A stretch of 31,843 nucleotides of DNA from Nitrososphaeraceae archaeon (GTDB taxonomy: Archaea > Thermoproteota > Nitrososphaeria > Nitrososphaerales > Nitrososphaeraceae): positions 1-31,843 of the forward strand of contig JAREAI010000001.1 in the NCBI GenBank assembly GCA_029240435.1. The letters run 5' to 3'. The number at the start of each line of letters is the position of its first letter. Position 1 is the first letter of the stretch. Made by a program: the position numbers and the translations under genes. Below are positions 21,294-28,087 of the stretch, piece by piece. The notes under the pieces are model-generated. The model was not told the origin of the DNA. It did not search any database and was given only the letters and a program-made list of their open reading frames with translations.

Positions 21294-24200
21294 TTATAAT
21301 ACGACATAAGATTTTAGTGAAGCCAAAGTAGGAGAATTTGTTTTTAACCACTCCAGTGTTTTGATAAAAGAAGAAGCAGATTCGATTGTAGTCAGAACAG
21401 GTATGCCTAATTCTACTGCCTTTCTCCTTATTTGGTATTCATCATAGAGCATTCCTACATATTTTTCAATCGTAGAGGTAGAAGGAATGTTCACTATAAA
21501 GTTAATTTTTCGTTCAAATAAGAGATCCGAAATGTTTGGTTTTCGATCTGGCTCGCTTATCTTATAAACTTGTTGAACGTTCTTGAATTTGTTATTTTCA
21601 ATAAACTCTGCTGTATGCTCAGTTGCCATAATATTATATCCCATAGCTGATATTAGCGATATTAATGGCAGCAATTTCTCCTTGTTTTTCTGTCCTCCAA
21701 TTGTAATTAGAGCTGAGCCAGATAAAGGAAGTGAATAACCAGCGGCTAGATAGGCTTTCGATAAAGCATCGTAAAAGCTTTCTCCAAAGCATGCGACTTC
21801 TCCGGTTGATTGCATCTCTACACTTAATACAATATCCGCACCTTCAAGTTGCATAAAAGAAAATTGTGGGACTTTGATTCCAAAACCTTTAGCCATCAAC
21901 CAAAGATCTTTGGCATTTATGGGAAGTCGATTCCCTGTCATTGCCCGGGCGGCCAGATCAATCAAATTTATTCCTACAAACTTTGAAACAAAGGGCATTG
22001 ACCTAGAAGCTCTAACATTTGCTTCAATTACTGATACCTCGTCATCCTTTATTAGATATTGTATGTTAAATGGTCCCTTTATTCGTAAAGCCTTACCTAT
22101 TCTTGTTGTATAATCTATAATCGTTTCAATAGTTTTCCTGTCAAGTCTCCAAGGAGGAATGCACATTATTGCATCACCTGAATGAATGCCAGCGTTATCG
22201 ATATGTTCTATTAAAGAGCCTATTACTACTTCGTTTCCGTCAGCCACTGCGTCGACTTCGACTTCTGAGGCGTCCTGTAAGAATTTACTTATTACGATAG
22301 GGTGGTCGGGACTAACATTTGTTGCATCAGTTAAAAATTGCTCTAATTGTTCTTCGCCCCATACGACTTTCATCGCTGCACCACTTAAAACGTAAGAAGG
22401 TCTCACAAGGACAGGATATCCTACTTTATCAGCAAATTCTTTTACTTCTTCTACTTCTGTGAATTTTTTCCAAGCCGGCTGTCTGATATTGAGTGAATCT
22501 AAGAGTTTACCAAACTTTTCTCTGTCTTCTGCTCTATCAACATCCTCACTGCTTGTTCCAATAATGTTAACGCCATATTTAGCAAGGTATGGATTGAGGT
22601 TATTTGCTGTCTGACCTCCTACGCAAGTAACAATTCCGCTTGGATTCTCTTTTTCGTAGATATCCATTACTCGCTCAAACGTCAATTCTTCAAAATACAA
22701 CCTGTCAGAGACGTCATAATCCGTAGAGACAGTTTCGGGATTACAATTTATTATAGAAACTTCTTTAATGCCATTCTTTTTCAATGCCCATACCATATTG
22801 ACTGTTCCCCAGTCGAACTCTACACTGCTGCCAATCCTATATGGGCCAGCGCCGAGAACTATTGCACTTCTTTTACTGTTCTCAATTAGTATATCATCGA
22901 CCTCCCCGCCATATGTCATATACAGATAATTTGTTTTGGCAGGCCATTCTGCAGATAATGTGTCGATTTGCTTTACCACTGGTTTTATTCCGAATTTCTG
23001 TCTTATCTCTCTGCATTTAGACTCATCTAGTCCTAAACATCTTCCAAGCTGCCTGTCGGAATAACCAATCTTCTTGGCTTTTTTAATTAAATCTAGATCA
23101 AGATTCGAATTTCGCAATTTTTCTTCCATATCTACAATGTTCTTAATTTTTATCAAAAACCATGGATCAATAGCGGATAGTTGGTTTATTCTATCAATTG
23201 TCATCCCGGCCCGAATAGCTCTAACAATGGTAAAGATTATTTCGTCATTTGGATGTAATAATGCCTGTTCTAATGCCTCACTGTTTTGAGTCAAATCAGC
23301 AACCGAATTATTGGCATTGGCTACTAATCCATCCATGCCAATGTCGCACATTCTGATTGCTTTCTGGATTACTTCTTCTAAATTCCGACCTATTGCCATT
23401 ACCTCACCCACTGATTTCATTGCACTTCCGAGCTTACGTTTTACAAATTCAAATTTTCTAAAGTCCCATCTTGGCATCTTTAATACGATGTAGTCAAGTG
23501 AAGGTTCAAAACAAGCCGTAGTGGCTTTTGTGATTTTGTTAATAAGTTCTGGAAGAGCGTATCCAAGGCCAATTTTTGCTGCCATGTATGCCAGAGGATA
23601 GCCTGTTGCTTTACTTGCAAGAGCAGATGATCTAGACAATCTTGCGTTAATTTCTATGGCACAATATTCCTCTGATTCTGGATTTAGACCAAATTGGATA
23701 TTGCATTCTCCAACGATAGCACAATAGGAGGTTGCACGAATTGCAGCGGATCGCAGCATCTGATACTCAAAATTATTAAGCGTTTGGGAAGGTGCGACAA
23801 CTATATTGTCGCCTGTATGTACACGCATTGATAAAATATTTTCCATATTGCAAACTATAACACTACTACCCTTTGAATCTCGCATTACTTCATATTCGAT
23901 TTGTTTCCAATGACCTACATATTTTTCAATTAGAACCTGATGGACTATACTAAGAGAAAGTCCTCGGTGGACTATTTCTTCCAACTCATATTCGTTGTAT
24001 GCAACGCCACCTCCTCTTCCGCCGAGAGTATATGCAACTCGAATAATCACAGGATAGCCAATCTGCTGACCAATCTTTAACGCTTCATTTACCGTGTAAG
24101 CGGGTGCACTCTCAAGTACAGGGACATCACTTTTTAACATGGCATCTTTAAATAATTGCCTATTTTCGGTAATCTCTATTCCATTGATTTGCGTCCCTAA

Positions 24201-24567
24201 AACTCTTATTCCATATTTTTCTATTATTTTGTCTTTATAGAGTGCTACGCCACAGTTCAGGGCCGTTTGTCCGCCAAAAGCTAACATAATAGAATCAGGT
24301 CTTTCTGCCTCAATTACTTCCTCGACAAATTTAGGAGTAATCGGTAAAAGATAAACCTTATCAGCGAATCTTGTATCAGTCTGAATAGTAGCAATATTAG
24401 GATTTATAAGAACACTCTTGATTCCGTCTTCCTTAAGTGCCTTTAAGCATTGAGAACCGGAGTAGTCAAAATAGCGGTCATTATAATTGACTTTCGCCTG
24501 CTTCTCCGATCTTAATAGCTCCACTACCTAATACGACAACTTTCTTTATTGTTTCATCTTTTGGCAA
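21294..24567 (-). CDS. carB: carbamoyl-phosphate synthase large subunit, split gene: join(24567..24493, 24470..21294), 1083 aa after removal of 22 nt
   Basis: Exon 1 from TTG 24567 (SD GAGGAGG at 24578-24572) reads MPKDETIKKVVVLGSGAIKIGEAGE; exon 2 reads FDYSGSQCLKALKE and continues with all CarB motifs to the C-terminal MGS domain. The track's ATG 24524 N-terminus (MELLRSEKQAKVNYNDRY) is an out-of-frame artefact. Confidence 0.95.
24471..24492 (-). other. 22-nt bulge-helix-bulge intron in carB mRNA (predicted)
   Basis: AGUCAAUUAUAAUGACCGCUAU; central helix GGCG/CGCU, bulges AA|A and AU|U, intron stem GUCA/UGAC; canonical cut sites give an exact in-frame join. Confidence 0.85.
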
Positions 24568-25789
24568 TTTTCCTCCTCTTCCTAGTCTTTATATTATGCT
24601 TAGTTAAAATTGTGGCTGTTTTTTTTACTTTATCAAATCCACTGAACTCATTTATTAATTCTTTGAATCTATTAAAAACAAACAGGCAGTCATTAGGACC
24701 TGGTGATGCTTCTGGATGAAACTGAACGGCTATGATTGGTTTTGACTCATGTTCTATACCTTCTATAGTATTATCGTCAATATTAGAAAACCATATTCTG
24801 AATCCTGTTCTATCAAGGTTTTTAGGCTCAATTCCATAGCCATGGTTCTGACTTGTTATATACGTTTGATTGTTTCTTAAATCTATGCAAGGTTTATTCT
24901 GTCCACGATGTCCGAATTTTAATTTATAAGTGTCAGCCCCTCCAGCTAAAGCGAGGATTTGATTTCCTAAACAGATGCCCAATGTGGGTATCGATTTCTC
25001 AATCAATTCAGTAGCTGTCTTGACTGTAGCTTTGCAGAGTTTGGGGTCTCCAGGACCATTGCTTATCACAACACCCTGTGGTTGATATGATTTTATTTTT
25101 TCGTATGGTGTATCCCATGGAAGGCGGATCACCCTGTAACCCATTCTAACAATATTACGTATTATGCTATATTTAGTACCGGTATCCAATAAGACTATAC
25201 ATTCATTATTATTATTAGTGCCATACTCACATGGTTGATTAACTGATACTTCTGGCATAAAGTTTTGGCCTTCATAATGCTCACTTTTTGCCAATTTTGA
25301 TAATCTTTCATCGTCAATAGAGCCTTTAGAAACTGAAAGAGCTCCATTCATTACACCCTTAACCCTTAACTTTTTTGTAAGCTCCCGTGTGTCGATTCCA
25401 AAGATTCCAGGTATTCCTTCCTCATATAACCATTCATCAAGAGTCTTAATGCAACTCCAATGACTAGCAATACGAGATAGATCATGAATCAATAAACCTT
25501 TAATCTGAATTTTATCAGATTCAAAGTATTTTGGCAAGCCAAATTCATCTTTTATATCGTAACTAGGAACACCGTAATTTCCAATAAGTGGATAAGTCAT
25601 ACATAATATCTGACCTCTATAGGAAGGATCCGTGATTGCTTCCGTGTAACCTACCATGCCTGTATTAAACACTATTTCTCCAGCAATCTCGTCACAAGGA
25701 TGGCCGAACCCTACGCCTGTAAATAGACTACCATCTTCCAGTATTAATTTTGCATTATATGCAGTATATTTCGATTCAAGAGTATGAAT
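24554..25789 (-). CDS. carA: carbamoyl-phosphate synthase small subunit; start probably ATT at 25789
   Basis: AKLILEDG, GEIVFNTGMVGY.E..TDPSY.GQI, SNGPGDP, GICLG.Q, HRGQN, QFHPEA; conserved N-terminus lies upstream of the track start (25672); exact start uncertain. Confidence 0.95.
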   Translation of the reverse strand: MHTLESKYTAYNAKLILEDGSLFTGVGFGHPCDEIAGEIVFNTGMVGYTEAITDPSYRGQILCMTYPLIGNYGVPSYDIKDEFGLPKYFESDKIQIKGLLIHDLSRIASHWSCIKTLDEWLYEEGIPGIFGIDTRELTKKLRVKGVMNGALSVSKGSIDDERLSKLAKSEHYEGQNFMPEVSVNQPCEYGTNNNNECIVLLDTGTKYSIIRNIVRMGYRVIRLPWDTPYEKIKSYQPQGVVISNGPGDPKLCKATVKTATELIEKSIPTLGICLGNQILALAGGADTYKLKFGHRGQNKPCIDLRNNQTYITSQNHGYGIEPKNLDRTGFRIWFSNIDDNTIEGIEHESKPIIAVQFHPEASPGPNDCLFVFNRFKELINEFSGFDKVKKTATILTKHNIKTRKRRKIAKR

Positions 25790-25908: not shown

Positions 25909-26660
25909 ATGTTTGAAAGTAAGAAGACATCCGCAGAGACTGTGATGTATTCATTATACTTATACTTTCTAGGATTGAGTTTCAGGAACATCTCTAAAGC
26001 AGTAGAACCATTCAAAGAAAAGAGGAGTCATGTGACTGTGTGCAATTGGGTATAGCGATTCCATCCTGACATTTATCACTGAAAAATATCACAATGATTA
26101 CTATCTCCATTATCAAAAAGTAACTATGTTTCTATTTGGAATTCGATGAAATTCATTAACCAAAGAAGATATTTCAAAAAAAGTGAAGAGAAGAGTTTTT
26201 AGAATTTGTCATTAATATTTGTCATTAAAGACAAAGAAACACTGAATATAAAGAATGAAATGAACATATCTATGTACATGATTATTGATTTTGCAGTTCA
26301 ACTGCTGCAATCAAAAGACTATGATCTTTAATATTCATCATATTCACTATATTCATCATACTATTACTCAGAAAGAAAAAAGATATTTTCTATAAGAGAA
26401 GTTTCTTTAAAAAATGGCTAATAGATATGAGAATAGAAAAGATATCAAAACATCTATACATATACACACACAGATGCCTTATGGTGATGCTATACATATA
26501 TTATAGATACTAAATATGAAACATCATTTACATTCATCTTATCAAAGAGAAAAAGAACCATTATTGATAGAACATCTCTCCAATACATAAAGAGCGTAGA
26601 ACCGAAAGTTATGAGTATTGTGATTATGGTTATTACTATCTATACAGAAAGGAAAAAGAT
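25909..26660 (+). mobile_element. degraded IS6-family transposase relic
   Basis: ATG 25909: MFESKKTSAETVMYSLYLYFLGLSFRNISKAVEPFKEKRSHVTVCNWV*RF (HTH part); later broken fragments KHHLHSSY (26519-26542), IIDRT, QYIK (26581), RRTESY (26595-26612) match the C-terminus of archaeal IS6 transposases as I recall it. Confidence 0.75.
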
Positions 26661-26799
26661 GTATACTAGTAGAGAGAGCACACAAATGAATGAATGATAC
26701 ATATGGTAAGGCAGCTTATCGATTTTCAAGCAACATGGTGAAAAAGATCAACAAAAAGAAAAGTTATAAAAACTAGAACAATTTAGTGGATCACAGAAA

Positions 26800-26835
26800 T
26801 GAACAAGTTCATGAACTAGTTCATGAACGCGTTCA
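26800..26835. repeat. three tandem 12-bp palindromes TGAAC-nn-GTTCA
   Basis: TGAACaaGTTCA TGAACtaGTTCA TGAACgcGTTCA. Confidence 0.9.
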
Positions 26836-27124
26836 CACTTTTTTACCATCCTTTTTTGACAGGCTAATTCTAGACTAACCAATATAGGAAAACGTTACCA
26901 AATAACAGAACAACAATACATAAATTAGTTAGATTCAAAGTTACAGATCAAGAAAGTATAATAATGTTTAGAATATTAGGTGGGTTTATTTATTATCAGA
27001 CTATAATGGTTCAGTGGGATGCAAGTTAAGTAGAAAGGAGGATGCATAGATAAGTAATTAAATATTTTACTAGAATAAGTTGATTATTTAAAGCGCTATT
27101 TCATTCTATCTACCATTGTTTTAT

Positions 27125-27240
27125 AGAACAGAAAGCTTTTTGATGATAACTATTTCTTCTTATAAGAAATAGAGAGACAGAGTACGTAGAACAAGTAATT
27201 CATTGGTTCAATCTGTTTGTTGATTTTCATAATGAGATGA
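27125..27240 (+). mobile_element. second IS6-like transposase C-terminal fragment
   Basis: RTESF-(frameshift)-DDNYF ... VEQVIHWFNLFVDFHNEM, resembling the DRTESFDDY...W.NLFVD.HN tail. Confidence 0.6.
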
Positions 27241-27359
27241 CTTTTGAAAAAATGGTTAAATGAACAGAGATCTAGAAAGACACAAATGTTTATTCCTCAT
27301 ATCAATCAAATTTCCTCCTCGAATGTCTTAATTTAATGTTTATTATAACTGAAAAATTT

Positions 27360-28087
27360 CTAAAATTCTACTGTCTTGCGATACAGCTCAAATCTTTTTT
27401 GAATCTCTTCCTTAGTAATAGAGAGTAATCTCTTCACTCCAAAATCCTCAACAGCGAATGCTCCCATAACATTTCCGTGAACTACTGCTTCCTTGAAAGT
27501 CCTGACTCTGAGACTATCTTGCTGAGCAAGATAACCAATAAATCCGCCGGCAAAAGCGTCTCCTGCTCCAGTCGGACATCATTAATGACTACTCCGTTAA
27601 CTTTGCTCATCATTTTGATTACATCATCCCGTTTATTTAAAATCCAATATTCTATCGTATCACAAACAGTCAGTTTGGGATGTGGAAAATATTCCAGTAA
27701 TTTGATGTTTTGAATAGGATCGTTATTAGCAAGATAAATATATTGTGATTTGCGATATTCATCGGGTATGGTAGGTTCGAAATGTGCTATTACATTTAAT
27801 TCTGTTTTATTAGTAGTACGATGAGAAAGGTCATAGTCAAACGTAGAATCGTAATGGAATGTCTTGTCTTGTAGGTTAGTGATAATTCCTTTTGTATCTA
27901 ATCTGTTGTCTAGAATCTCTCTATAATGAGACGGAAAATCGAAACCTATAACTCCAACTATCGAAGTACGTGTATAGAAGCTAGATGAAAGAGATGCAAA
28001 GGTAGCAGCCCCTCCCATAATTTTTGTTTGAGTTTTAAAAGGCGTACGTGTGGTATCTAATGCAATGGTTCCAAAGACTGTTAACAT
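27360..28087 (-). pseudogene. PfkB-family carbohydrate/nucleoside kinase broken by an internal deletion and frameshift
   Basis: Frame 1 reads MLTVFGTIALD...GGAATFA...VVIND up to 27578; another frame resumes at 27575 with PTGAGDAFAGGFIGYLA...KTVEF* (stop 27362-27360); the intervening segment is absent. Confidence 0.85.

Follow-up and report, generated by a model that had tools for sequence, protein, structure and literature searches.

The gene for the carbamoyl-phosphate synthase large subunit (carB) of a soil ammonia-oxidising archaeon of the Nitrososphaeraceae is interrupted by 22 nt that are, with high probability, a bulge-helix-bulge (BHB) type intron of the carB pre-mRNA, cut by the tRNA-splicing endonuclease with the exons joined by RtcB. 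Pointing to this are the insert and its fold, its conservation and covariation in relatives, its untranslatability, the enzyme genes of the host, and an RNA molecule from a soil metatranscriptome (run X1) that carries the exact joint. That the insert was a real mRNA intron in a core metabolic gene had been proposed in a first-pass annotation of the window (the whole 31,843-nt stretch of DNA analysed here), and the last four of these lines of evidence support the proposal.

carB is divided between GEAGE and FDYSG

From position 24567 onward, the minus strand reads TTG CCA AAA GAT ... GGA GAA GCA GGC GAA, followed by the insert AGTCAATTATAATGACCGCTAT (24492-24471, 22 nt, minus strand) and then by TTT GAC TAC TCC GGT TCT CAA, which divides carB between GEAGE and FDYSG. 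Translation straight through from TTG 24567 gave a peptide of 28 aa ended by a TAA within the insert, and an in silico splice joining 24493 to 24470 gave a CarB of 1083 aa with zero internal stops. Re-reading thus returned exactly the gene sequence and insert given in the first-pass annotation, together with its unspliced peptide and its restored frame; its alternative start, ATG 24524, had to be corrected, as the codon there is GTG. In the ORF list, the sole open frame for a gene caller is the 1076-aa one that begins at this GTG. CarB also contains an internal repeat, VLGAGPYRIGSSVEFDWG, which is uninterrupted and is the counterpart of VLGSGAIKIGEAGE↓FDYSG (arrows mark the joint or cut); the comparison puts the joint between E and F without loss of any residue. 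The parts of the locus are as follows.

24554-25672, minus strand: carA (carbamoyl-phosphate synthase small subunit), from Pfam PF00988 and PF00117 and the ORF list
24572-24576, minus strand: Shine-Dalgarno-like GGAGG, 4 nt 5' of the carB TTG, read from the sequence and kept in relatives
24493-24567, minus strand: carB exon 1, TTG start plus 24 codons, (M)PKDETIKKVVVLGSGAIKIGEAGE, from translation
24471-24492, minus strand: carB intron, 22 nt, AGUCAAUUAUAAUGACCGCUAU, absent from the RNA contig and with homologous inserts in relatives
21294-24470, minus strand: carB exon 2, 1058 codons plus stop, starting FDYSGSQCLK, from translation and Pfam (CPSase_L_D1, D2, D3, MGS)

carA lies directly upstream and shares its last 14 nt with the beginning of carB. 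The predicted junction peptide of the spliced product is IGEAGEFDYSGSQCLK. About 1.4 kb 5' of carA, the AT-rich segment 26056-27476 has no ORF of at least 50 aa, a GC content of 0.28-0.30 (0.34-0.40 nearby) and, as repeats, short imperfect tandem ones only. Rfam gave zero family matches at the insert site, in 26056-27476 or elsewhere in the window, and no tRNA genes were found in the window.

The RNA around the insert folds as a relaxed BHB

A segment of 67 nt around the insert had an MFE of -18.3 kcal/mol (z = -2.86; 3 of 200 shuffles were equally good), and its MFE fold contained an 8-bp exon-exon helix (24511-24504 paired with 24462-24455), the 4-bp GGCG/CGCU helix, the AAA bulge and the GUCA/UGAC hairpin. 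The 38-nt core hairpin by itself was not significant (z = -1.29); significance is drawn from comparative and RNA data. The elements below were traced in the MFE fold, in RNAalifold and in A1, an ungapped alignment of 32 distinct sequences of the 22-nt length class.

24500-24511, minus strand: exon-exon helix, 5' strand, GAUCGGAG, then A, then AGC (MFE, A1, RNAalifold)
24495-24498, minus strand: central 4-bp helix, 5' strand GGCG (exon 1), paired with 24473-24476, RNAalifold in agreement
24492-24494, minus strand: 5' bulge A-A↓A with the 5' splice site after 24493, unpaired in MFE and RNAalifold; the RNA contig match stops at 24493
24477-24491, minus strand: inner intron hairpin, GUCA (24491-24488), loop AUUAUAA, UGAC (24480-24477), from covariation
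24473-24476, minus strand: central 4-bp helix, 3' strand CGCU (intron) (MFE, A1, RNAalifold)
24468-24472, minus strand: relaxed 3' bulge A-U↓U-U-U with the 3' splice site after 24471; the RNA contig restarts at 24470
24455-24467, minus strand: exon-exon helix, 3' strand, G.CU.CUCCGGUU (MFE, A1, RNAalifold)

The first-pass annotation had drawn these elements as a strict 3-4-3 BHB. Its central helix, AAA bulge, GUCA/UGAC stem, AUUAUAA loop and 8-bp exon helix all reappeared, but its second bulge did not, since 4 nt are unpaired on the 3' side in the MFE fold and 5 in RNAalifold (32 relatives); the helix beside this bulge is weak, its pair 24499/24468 being standard in only 18 of the 32 sequences. 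The motif is therefore a relaxed BHB. It has the 4-bp central helix, the 3-nt 5' bulge and the further helix, and its cuts are symmetric, 2 nt 3' of each central-helix strand (GGCG-AA↓ and CGCU-AU↓), and it lacks the strict second 3-nt bulge closed by an adjacent helix that belongs to the canonical hBHBh' form.

Inserts occupy the same codon boundary in relatives

Exon 2, used as a protein query, located carB in all 41 related genomes, and the junction was inspected in 30 fetched loci. An insert stood at the identical codon boundary in 26 of these 30, as the first-pass annotation had expected of relatives; the intron stem covaried, and the central helix was conserved as GGCG/CGC(U/C/A). The other four loci, the most distant, read GEAGEFDYSG without interruption. 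Within the window's genus, all 7 genomes carry the insert.

Scanning a single genome of each species for a sequence pattern yielded at least 119 stretches. With chance matches removed, at least 122 contigs carried a carB insert, and 110 of the copies among the matches listed were distinct when flanks were included. Most of the comparative set thus comes from a pattern that presets GGCGA, the initial G of the inner helix and the CG of the central helix, so that at those positions the independent evidence is only that of the 26 protein-retrieved loci, all of which show them. Matches of 15 nt in Halobacteria and of 30-41 nt in Rhodococcus, Rickettsiales, WS1 and an alphaproteobacterium lay in unrelated proteins and were left out as chance. 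Named sources among the matches listed were Nitrososphaera, Nitrosocosmicus, Nitrosopolaris, Nitrosopumilus, Nitrosarchaeum, Cenarchaeum, Nitrosotenuis, Nitrosotalea and Nitrosopelagicus, as well as one Nitrosomirales MAG and one DPANN genome (Iainarchaeum). In the Iainarchaeum MAG the insert has 39 nt and lies at the same boundary, GQAGE↓FDYSG (L134:5858-5916); it folds with a GGCG/CGCC central helix, an AAA bulge and an extra internal hairpin, and otherwise like the others.

Insert length ranged from 18 to 39 nt over the 110 distinct copies, with 43, 40 and 27 copies in the three mod-3 classes. None of the 110 was both in frame and stop-free, and in 92 of them a stop in the exon-1 frame fell inside or overlapped the insert. 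Two database entries call for separate mention. A 2.5-kb contig (L079) of a 'Heimdallarchaeota' MAG has a carB insert and a flanking protein identical to the Nitrosopumilaceae type, and is probably mis-binned. One Nitrosocosmicus-like genome (G311, genus g2) has two insert-bearing sites (C44:116-161 and C102:3235-3280) whose sequences differ at a single base, so that one copy loses an inner-helix pair; the two copies could reflect a duplication, a mixture of strains or contamination.

The intron helices covary and the paired exon codons are constrained

Pairs were counted from both ends of the insert inward, an anchored register that makes alignment unnecessary. In this register, the inner helix had a mean of 5.05 contiguous pairs (minimum 3), against 0-2 contiguous pairs in registers slid by 1-3 nt. 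In A1, 93.5% of cells held standard pairs, compared with 17-48% for slid partners; 97.7% of cells were paired in the central helix and 92.7% in the inner helix, where double (compensatory) changes occurred in 5 of the 6 pairs. The covariation score of A1 was 0.236 versus 0.152 after shuffling, and 0 of 500 shuffles scored as high. RNAalifold, which is independent of the drawn structure, recovered the same helices. The stems themselves differ by lineage (GCCAG in Nitrososphaera, GCUAGAU in Nitrosocosmicus, GUCGC in Nitrosopumilaceae).

The outermost pair of the central helix (n = 110) was G-C in 55 copies, G-U in 40 and G-A in 15. Across relatives, the 5' bulge read AA↓A in 84 copies, AG↓A in 22 and AA↓U in 4, and the 3' bulge AA↓U in 76, AU↓U in 21, AG↓U in 12 and GU↓U in 1. 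The exon-exon helix changed as well: in three A1 sequences the pair 24510/24456 is switched from A-U to G-C, one partner changing with an Ile-to-Val replacement and the other within a synonymous Gly codon.

In insert-bearing genomes, third codon positions with a partner in the exon helices were near-invariant; in 16 relatives that lack the insert, they were free. The paired-site codons with versus without the insert were ATC in 86/94 vs 8/16, GGA in 87/94 vs 4/16, GAA in 84/94 vs 8/16 and TAC in 91/94 vs 4/16, counts that are confounded by relatedness and base composition. Unpaired third positions were variable both with and without the insert. Within a single genus (g40), all 7 insert-bearing genomes read GGCGAG...TTTGACTACTCCGG with GAC TAC TCC kept, and all 24 insert-less genomes have GAT, mostly followed by TAT TCT; judged from sequence comparison, this within-genus contrast would be hard to explain by anything other than constraint linked to the insert.

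Exon 1 is coding and exon 2 depends on it

Codon differences in exon 1 between relatives were synonymous in 90% of cases and lay mostly at third positions (6.78 vs 1.23 and 0.06). The exon 1 frame was open in 95 of 95 sequences, the other two frames in 24 and 40. This pattern of substitution clearly points to a coding exon 1 under strong purifying selection in its own frame. The exon-2 frame, in turn, meets a stop inside the insert in 66 of 110 genomes, and only 8 of 110 have a start codon after such a stop; exon 2 is thus incapable of separate initiation. In most relatives, the reading frame of GTG 24524 is closed.

An RNA contig reads across the joint

A near-identical sequence was present in 18 soil metatranscriptomes, and three RNA runs and one probable DNA run were compared to 24000-25000. 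The X1 run contained a contig of 240 nt (word depth 9.2) that matched 24720-24493 over 228 nt with 0 mismatches. Past 24493 it continued with 12 nt, GGAGTAGTCAAA on the plus strand, whose reverse complement TTTGACTACTCC equals 24470-24459, the first bases of exon 2; this 12-mer occurs once in the window, and the genomic bases that adjoin 24493, TTATAATTGACT, are unlike the continuation. The contig therefore reads GGCGAA↓TTTGACTACTCC, which is the predicted joint without the 22 nt and which includes the GGCGAA↓TTTGAC junction that the first-pass annotation had proposed looking for, the support for spliced RNA being this single assembled contig with its 12-nt overhang beyond the joint. Because shifting both cuts by one base in either direction would alter the product, the two cut positions, after 24493 and after 24471, are fixed.

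The X3 run, also of RNA, gave an unspliced contig through 24380-24515 that includes the intron. It differs from the window at two positions (24432 C>T and 24465 G>A) and may be either the precursor transcript of a sister strain or carried-over DNA. In the probable DNA run, X19, the site was covered at a depth of 47-77, with no joint or loose end reported. A search for further spliced RNA, using a 59-aa spliced N-terminal query against a protein collection, returned 1520 short fragments, none above 90% identity. Two contigs that were inspected, L165 and L166, are insert-less Nitrosopumilaceae DNA, and the search added no RNA evidence to that of X1. In L166, from a marine metagenome, a one-base frameshift close to a CAAAAC run splits the insert-less carB into two overlapping calls (1740-1830); it is most likely an error of sequencing or assembly in which the intron is not involved.

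The host encodes a candidate splicing machinery

The genome contains two EndA-domain genes on different contigs, encoding proteins of 183 and 241 aa with 32% identity over 87 residues. Both proteins match the N-terminal and catalytic domains (Pfam PF02778 and PF01974), and the His motif is present only in the shorter one (DHAPYLV; the longer has KPAKYVV). The (alpha-beta)2 form of EndA is conserved in Thaumarchaeota (Kaneta et al., PMC5829648), and relaxed BHB motifs are cut only by the (alpha-beta)2 and epsilon2 types (PMC5829648). The two divergent genes would fit an (alpha-beta)2 endonuclease of the relaxed-motif type. RtcB is encoded by one gene; by gene content, the host thus has both a putative relaxed-motif-capable endonuclease and the ligase, and EndA and RtcB are the presumed acting enzymes. 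ARAGORN found only 20 tRNA genes in the whole genome (85% complete), with three doubtful short introns; many tRNA genes may lie outside the assembly, or may escape ARAGORN through non-canonical introns beyond its model.

These elements suggest the following pathway. carA and carB would be transcribed together, and the pre-mRNA would fold at the boundary of exon 1 and exon 2 into the exon-exon helix, the GGCG/CGCU helix with its 5' bulge, the inner hairpin and the relaxed 3' bulge. A two-subunit alpha/beta EndA would cut 2 nt 3' of each central-helix strand, after 24493 and 24471, and RtcB would join the exons, so that GEAGE-FDYSG is restored and with it the full-length CarB of 1083 aa. Unspliced carB RNA would yield only the 28-aa peptide, and the spliced mRNA is presumably the translated form.

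Other explanations of the insert

The joint in X1 could have come from the DNA of a co-occurring strain with a precise intron loss instead of from spliced RNA. RNA libraries can contain DNA, and precise loss is natural: 101 of 301 surveyed genomes have a contiguous carB, and five of these are genomes of genus g15 in the same family (see below). Such a source is nevertheless quite improbable, given that the contig matches the window without a difference over 228 nt and that all seven members of the window's genus bear the insert; X19, at its depth, also reported neither joint nor loose end. If the joint did derive from insert-less DNA, splicing would be unproven, though the comparative evidence would still imply it. 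The RNA molecule lacking the 22 nt also bears on the idea that CarB is made from unspliced mRNA by ribosomal bypass or frameshift over the insert, as in phage T4 gene 60. A hairpin does follow immediately on the last codon of exon 1, and X3 did contain the unspliced form, but there are no matching take-off and landing codons (GAA before the insert, AU↓UUU GAC at its far end), the inserts fall in all mod-3 classes over the 18-39 nt range with freely varying sequences, and a covarying central helix with symmetric bulges is a requirement of EndA and not of hopping. We regard bypass as very improbable.

Least credible of all is that the gene is a pseudogene or an assembly artefact, or that CarB lacks its N-terminus and starts from GTG 24524 or later. 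The open 1076-aa frame is available to gene callers, but the same insert recurs in well over 100 independent assemblies, complete genomes included, which answers the concern over assembly error that the first-pass annotation had itself raised. Exon 1 is under strong purifying selection, the insert carries exon-2 frame stops that are seldom followed by a start, and the GTG frame is mostly closed elsewhere. A late start would also discard the 25 residues of exon 1, which include a conserved GSGxIxIGxAxE loop that is intact in the internal repeat. A self-splicing group I or II intron was rejected: the insert has only 18-39 nt and no Rfam match, and a ribozyme core takes hundreds of nt.

Distribution suggests an old intron with repeated loss

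An order-level survey of an even sample of 301 genomes scored the insert pattern against the contiguous form; 145 genomes had the insert pattern and 101 the contiguous form. Counts by family were as follows.

Family f1 (the window's family; Nitrososphaeraceae by named contigs): insert 62/73; contiguous 5/73, all genus g15
Family f4: insert 7/9; contiguous 0/9
Family f7: insert 0/13; contiguous 11/13
Family f9: insert 0/11; contiguous 7/11
Family f10: insert 28/74; contiguous 19/74
Family f12: insert 0/10; contiguous 9/10
Family f13: insert 43/73; contiguous 30/73
Family f15: insert 0/15; contiguous 14/15

In the Nitrososphaera-like genus g15, the insert is kept in 17 of 23 sampled genomes, and the five genomes without it (G138, G145, G151, G178 and G184) still have GGCGAG at the junction, which looks like recent precise intron loss within the genus. 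Judging by these distributions, the intron appears to be old and common to Nitrososphaeraceae, Nitrosopumilaceae and Nitrosomirales-like lineages, and vertical inheritance of an old intron with repeated precise loss would be the simplest reading. The carB mini-intron is probably what is left, in degenerate form, of an intron that was once mobile. In a more speculative version, which we consider rather unlikely, its vertically inherited sequence goes back to a mobile BHB intron that homed into the ultra-conserved coding site GEAGE↓FDYSG; homing would account for the identical position in Nitrososphaerales and DPANN archaea. Retention of the intron may also have been selected, tying CarB synthesis, and with it arginine and pyrimidine supply, to tRNA-splicing activity.

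Discussion

We found no published description of a carB intron in the full-text literature, much subscription literature lying outside the reach of the search; the first-pass annotation had likewise known of none. The closest precedent is the cbf5 pre-mRNA intron of Crenarchaeota (Watanabe 2002; Yoshinari 2006; Yokobori 2009, PMC2738675). Schwarz et al. (2020, PMC7714728) give it as the only archaeal mRNA case besides their own 5' UTR example, and a 2025 paper on EndA structure cites only the cbf5 work for protein-coding genes (PMC12397907). The predicted introns in other protein genes that are cited in the cbf5 paper concern the virus SIRV1 and Sulfolobus genomes, not carB (PMC2738675). Among the published cases found, carB would thus be the second gene after cbf5 with an endonuclease-spliced intron inside an archaeal coding sequence. 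Both introns are short, relaxed and BHB-type, lie in coding sequence, occur in hosts with a hetero-oligomeric EndA, show a patchy distribution with gains or losses, and have been mistaken for frameshifts by gene callers and annotators. The two differ in that cbf5 encodes an RNA-modification enzyme and carB a metabolic one, in that the hosts are Crenarchaeota for cbf5 and, for carB, mesophilic ammonia oxidisers of the Nitrososphaerales and at least one DPANN genome, and in position, the carB intron lying 25 codons from the start. Cenarchaeum and Nitrosopumilus have no cbf5 intron (Yokobori 2009, PMC2738675). EndA cleavage has been demonstrated for cbf5, and we infer it for carB.

The BHB intron in the 5' UTR of Haloferax volcanii HVO_1309 (PMC7714728) is likewise a target of the splicing endonuclease that lies in an mRNA instead of a tRNA or rRNA. 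It lies in an untranslated leader and leaves the frame intact, whereas the carB intron breaks the coding sequence, so that its removal is required for a functional protein. With archaeal tRNA and rRNA BHB introns the carB intron shares bulges on opposite strands around a 4-bp helix, cuts 2 nt into each bulge and, presumably, the same enzymes, EndA and RtcB. Its host RNA, in contrast, is a messenger whose exon helices are made of codons, and synonymous sites are thereby frozen. Splicing of HAC1/XBP1 by IRE1 and tRNA ligase or RtcB (PMC5333776) is similar in its very short intron (26 nt in XBP1; PMC5333776), removal of that intron from an mRNA that otherwise looks mature, protein endonuclease, sealing by a tRNA ligase and change of frame, but it uses IRE1 and a twin stem-loop motif and is regulated by stress; the likeness is one of analogy, not homology.

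In insert-bearing genomes, gene callers give carB a wrong or truncated N-terminus or a pseudogene call, and such miscalls can distort reconstructions of arginine and pyrimidine synthesis. Insert-bearing and insert-less species, which sometimes belong to one genus, offer a natural system for studying intron loss, the constraint of RNA structure on codon choice, and a possible limit that splicing sets on expression. If the homing proposal were true, endonuclease-spliced introns could invade archaeal protein-coding genes and persist in them across phyla. On our preferred reading, that the carB insert is an intron spliced by EndA and RtcB, mRNA splicing by the tRNA machinery would be more than a crenarchaeal curiosity and would extend to a core metabolic gene of ammonia-oxidising archaea, organisms of global importance.
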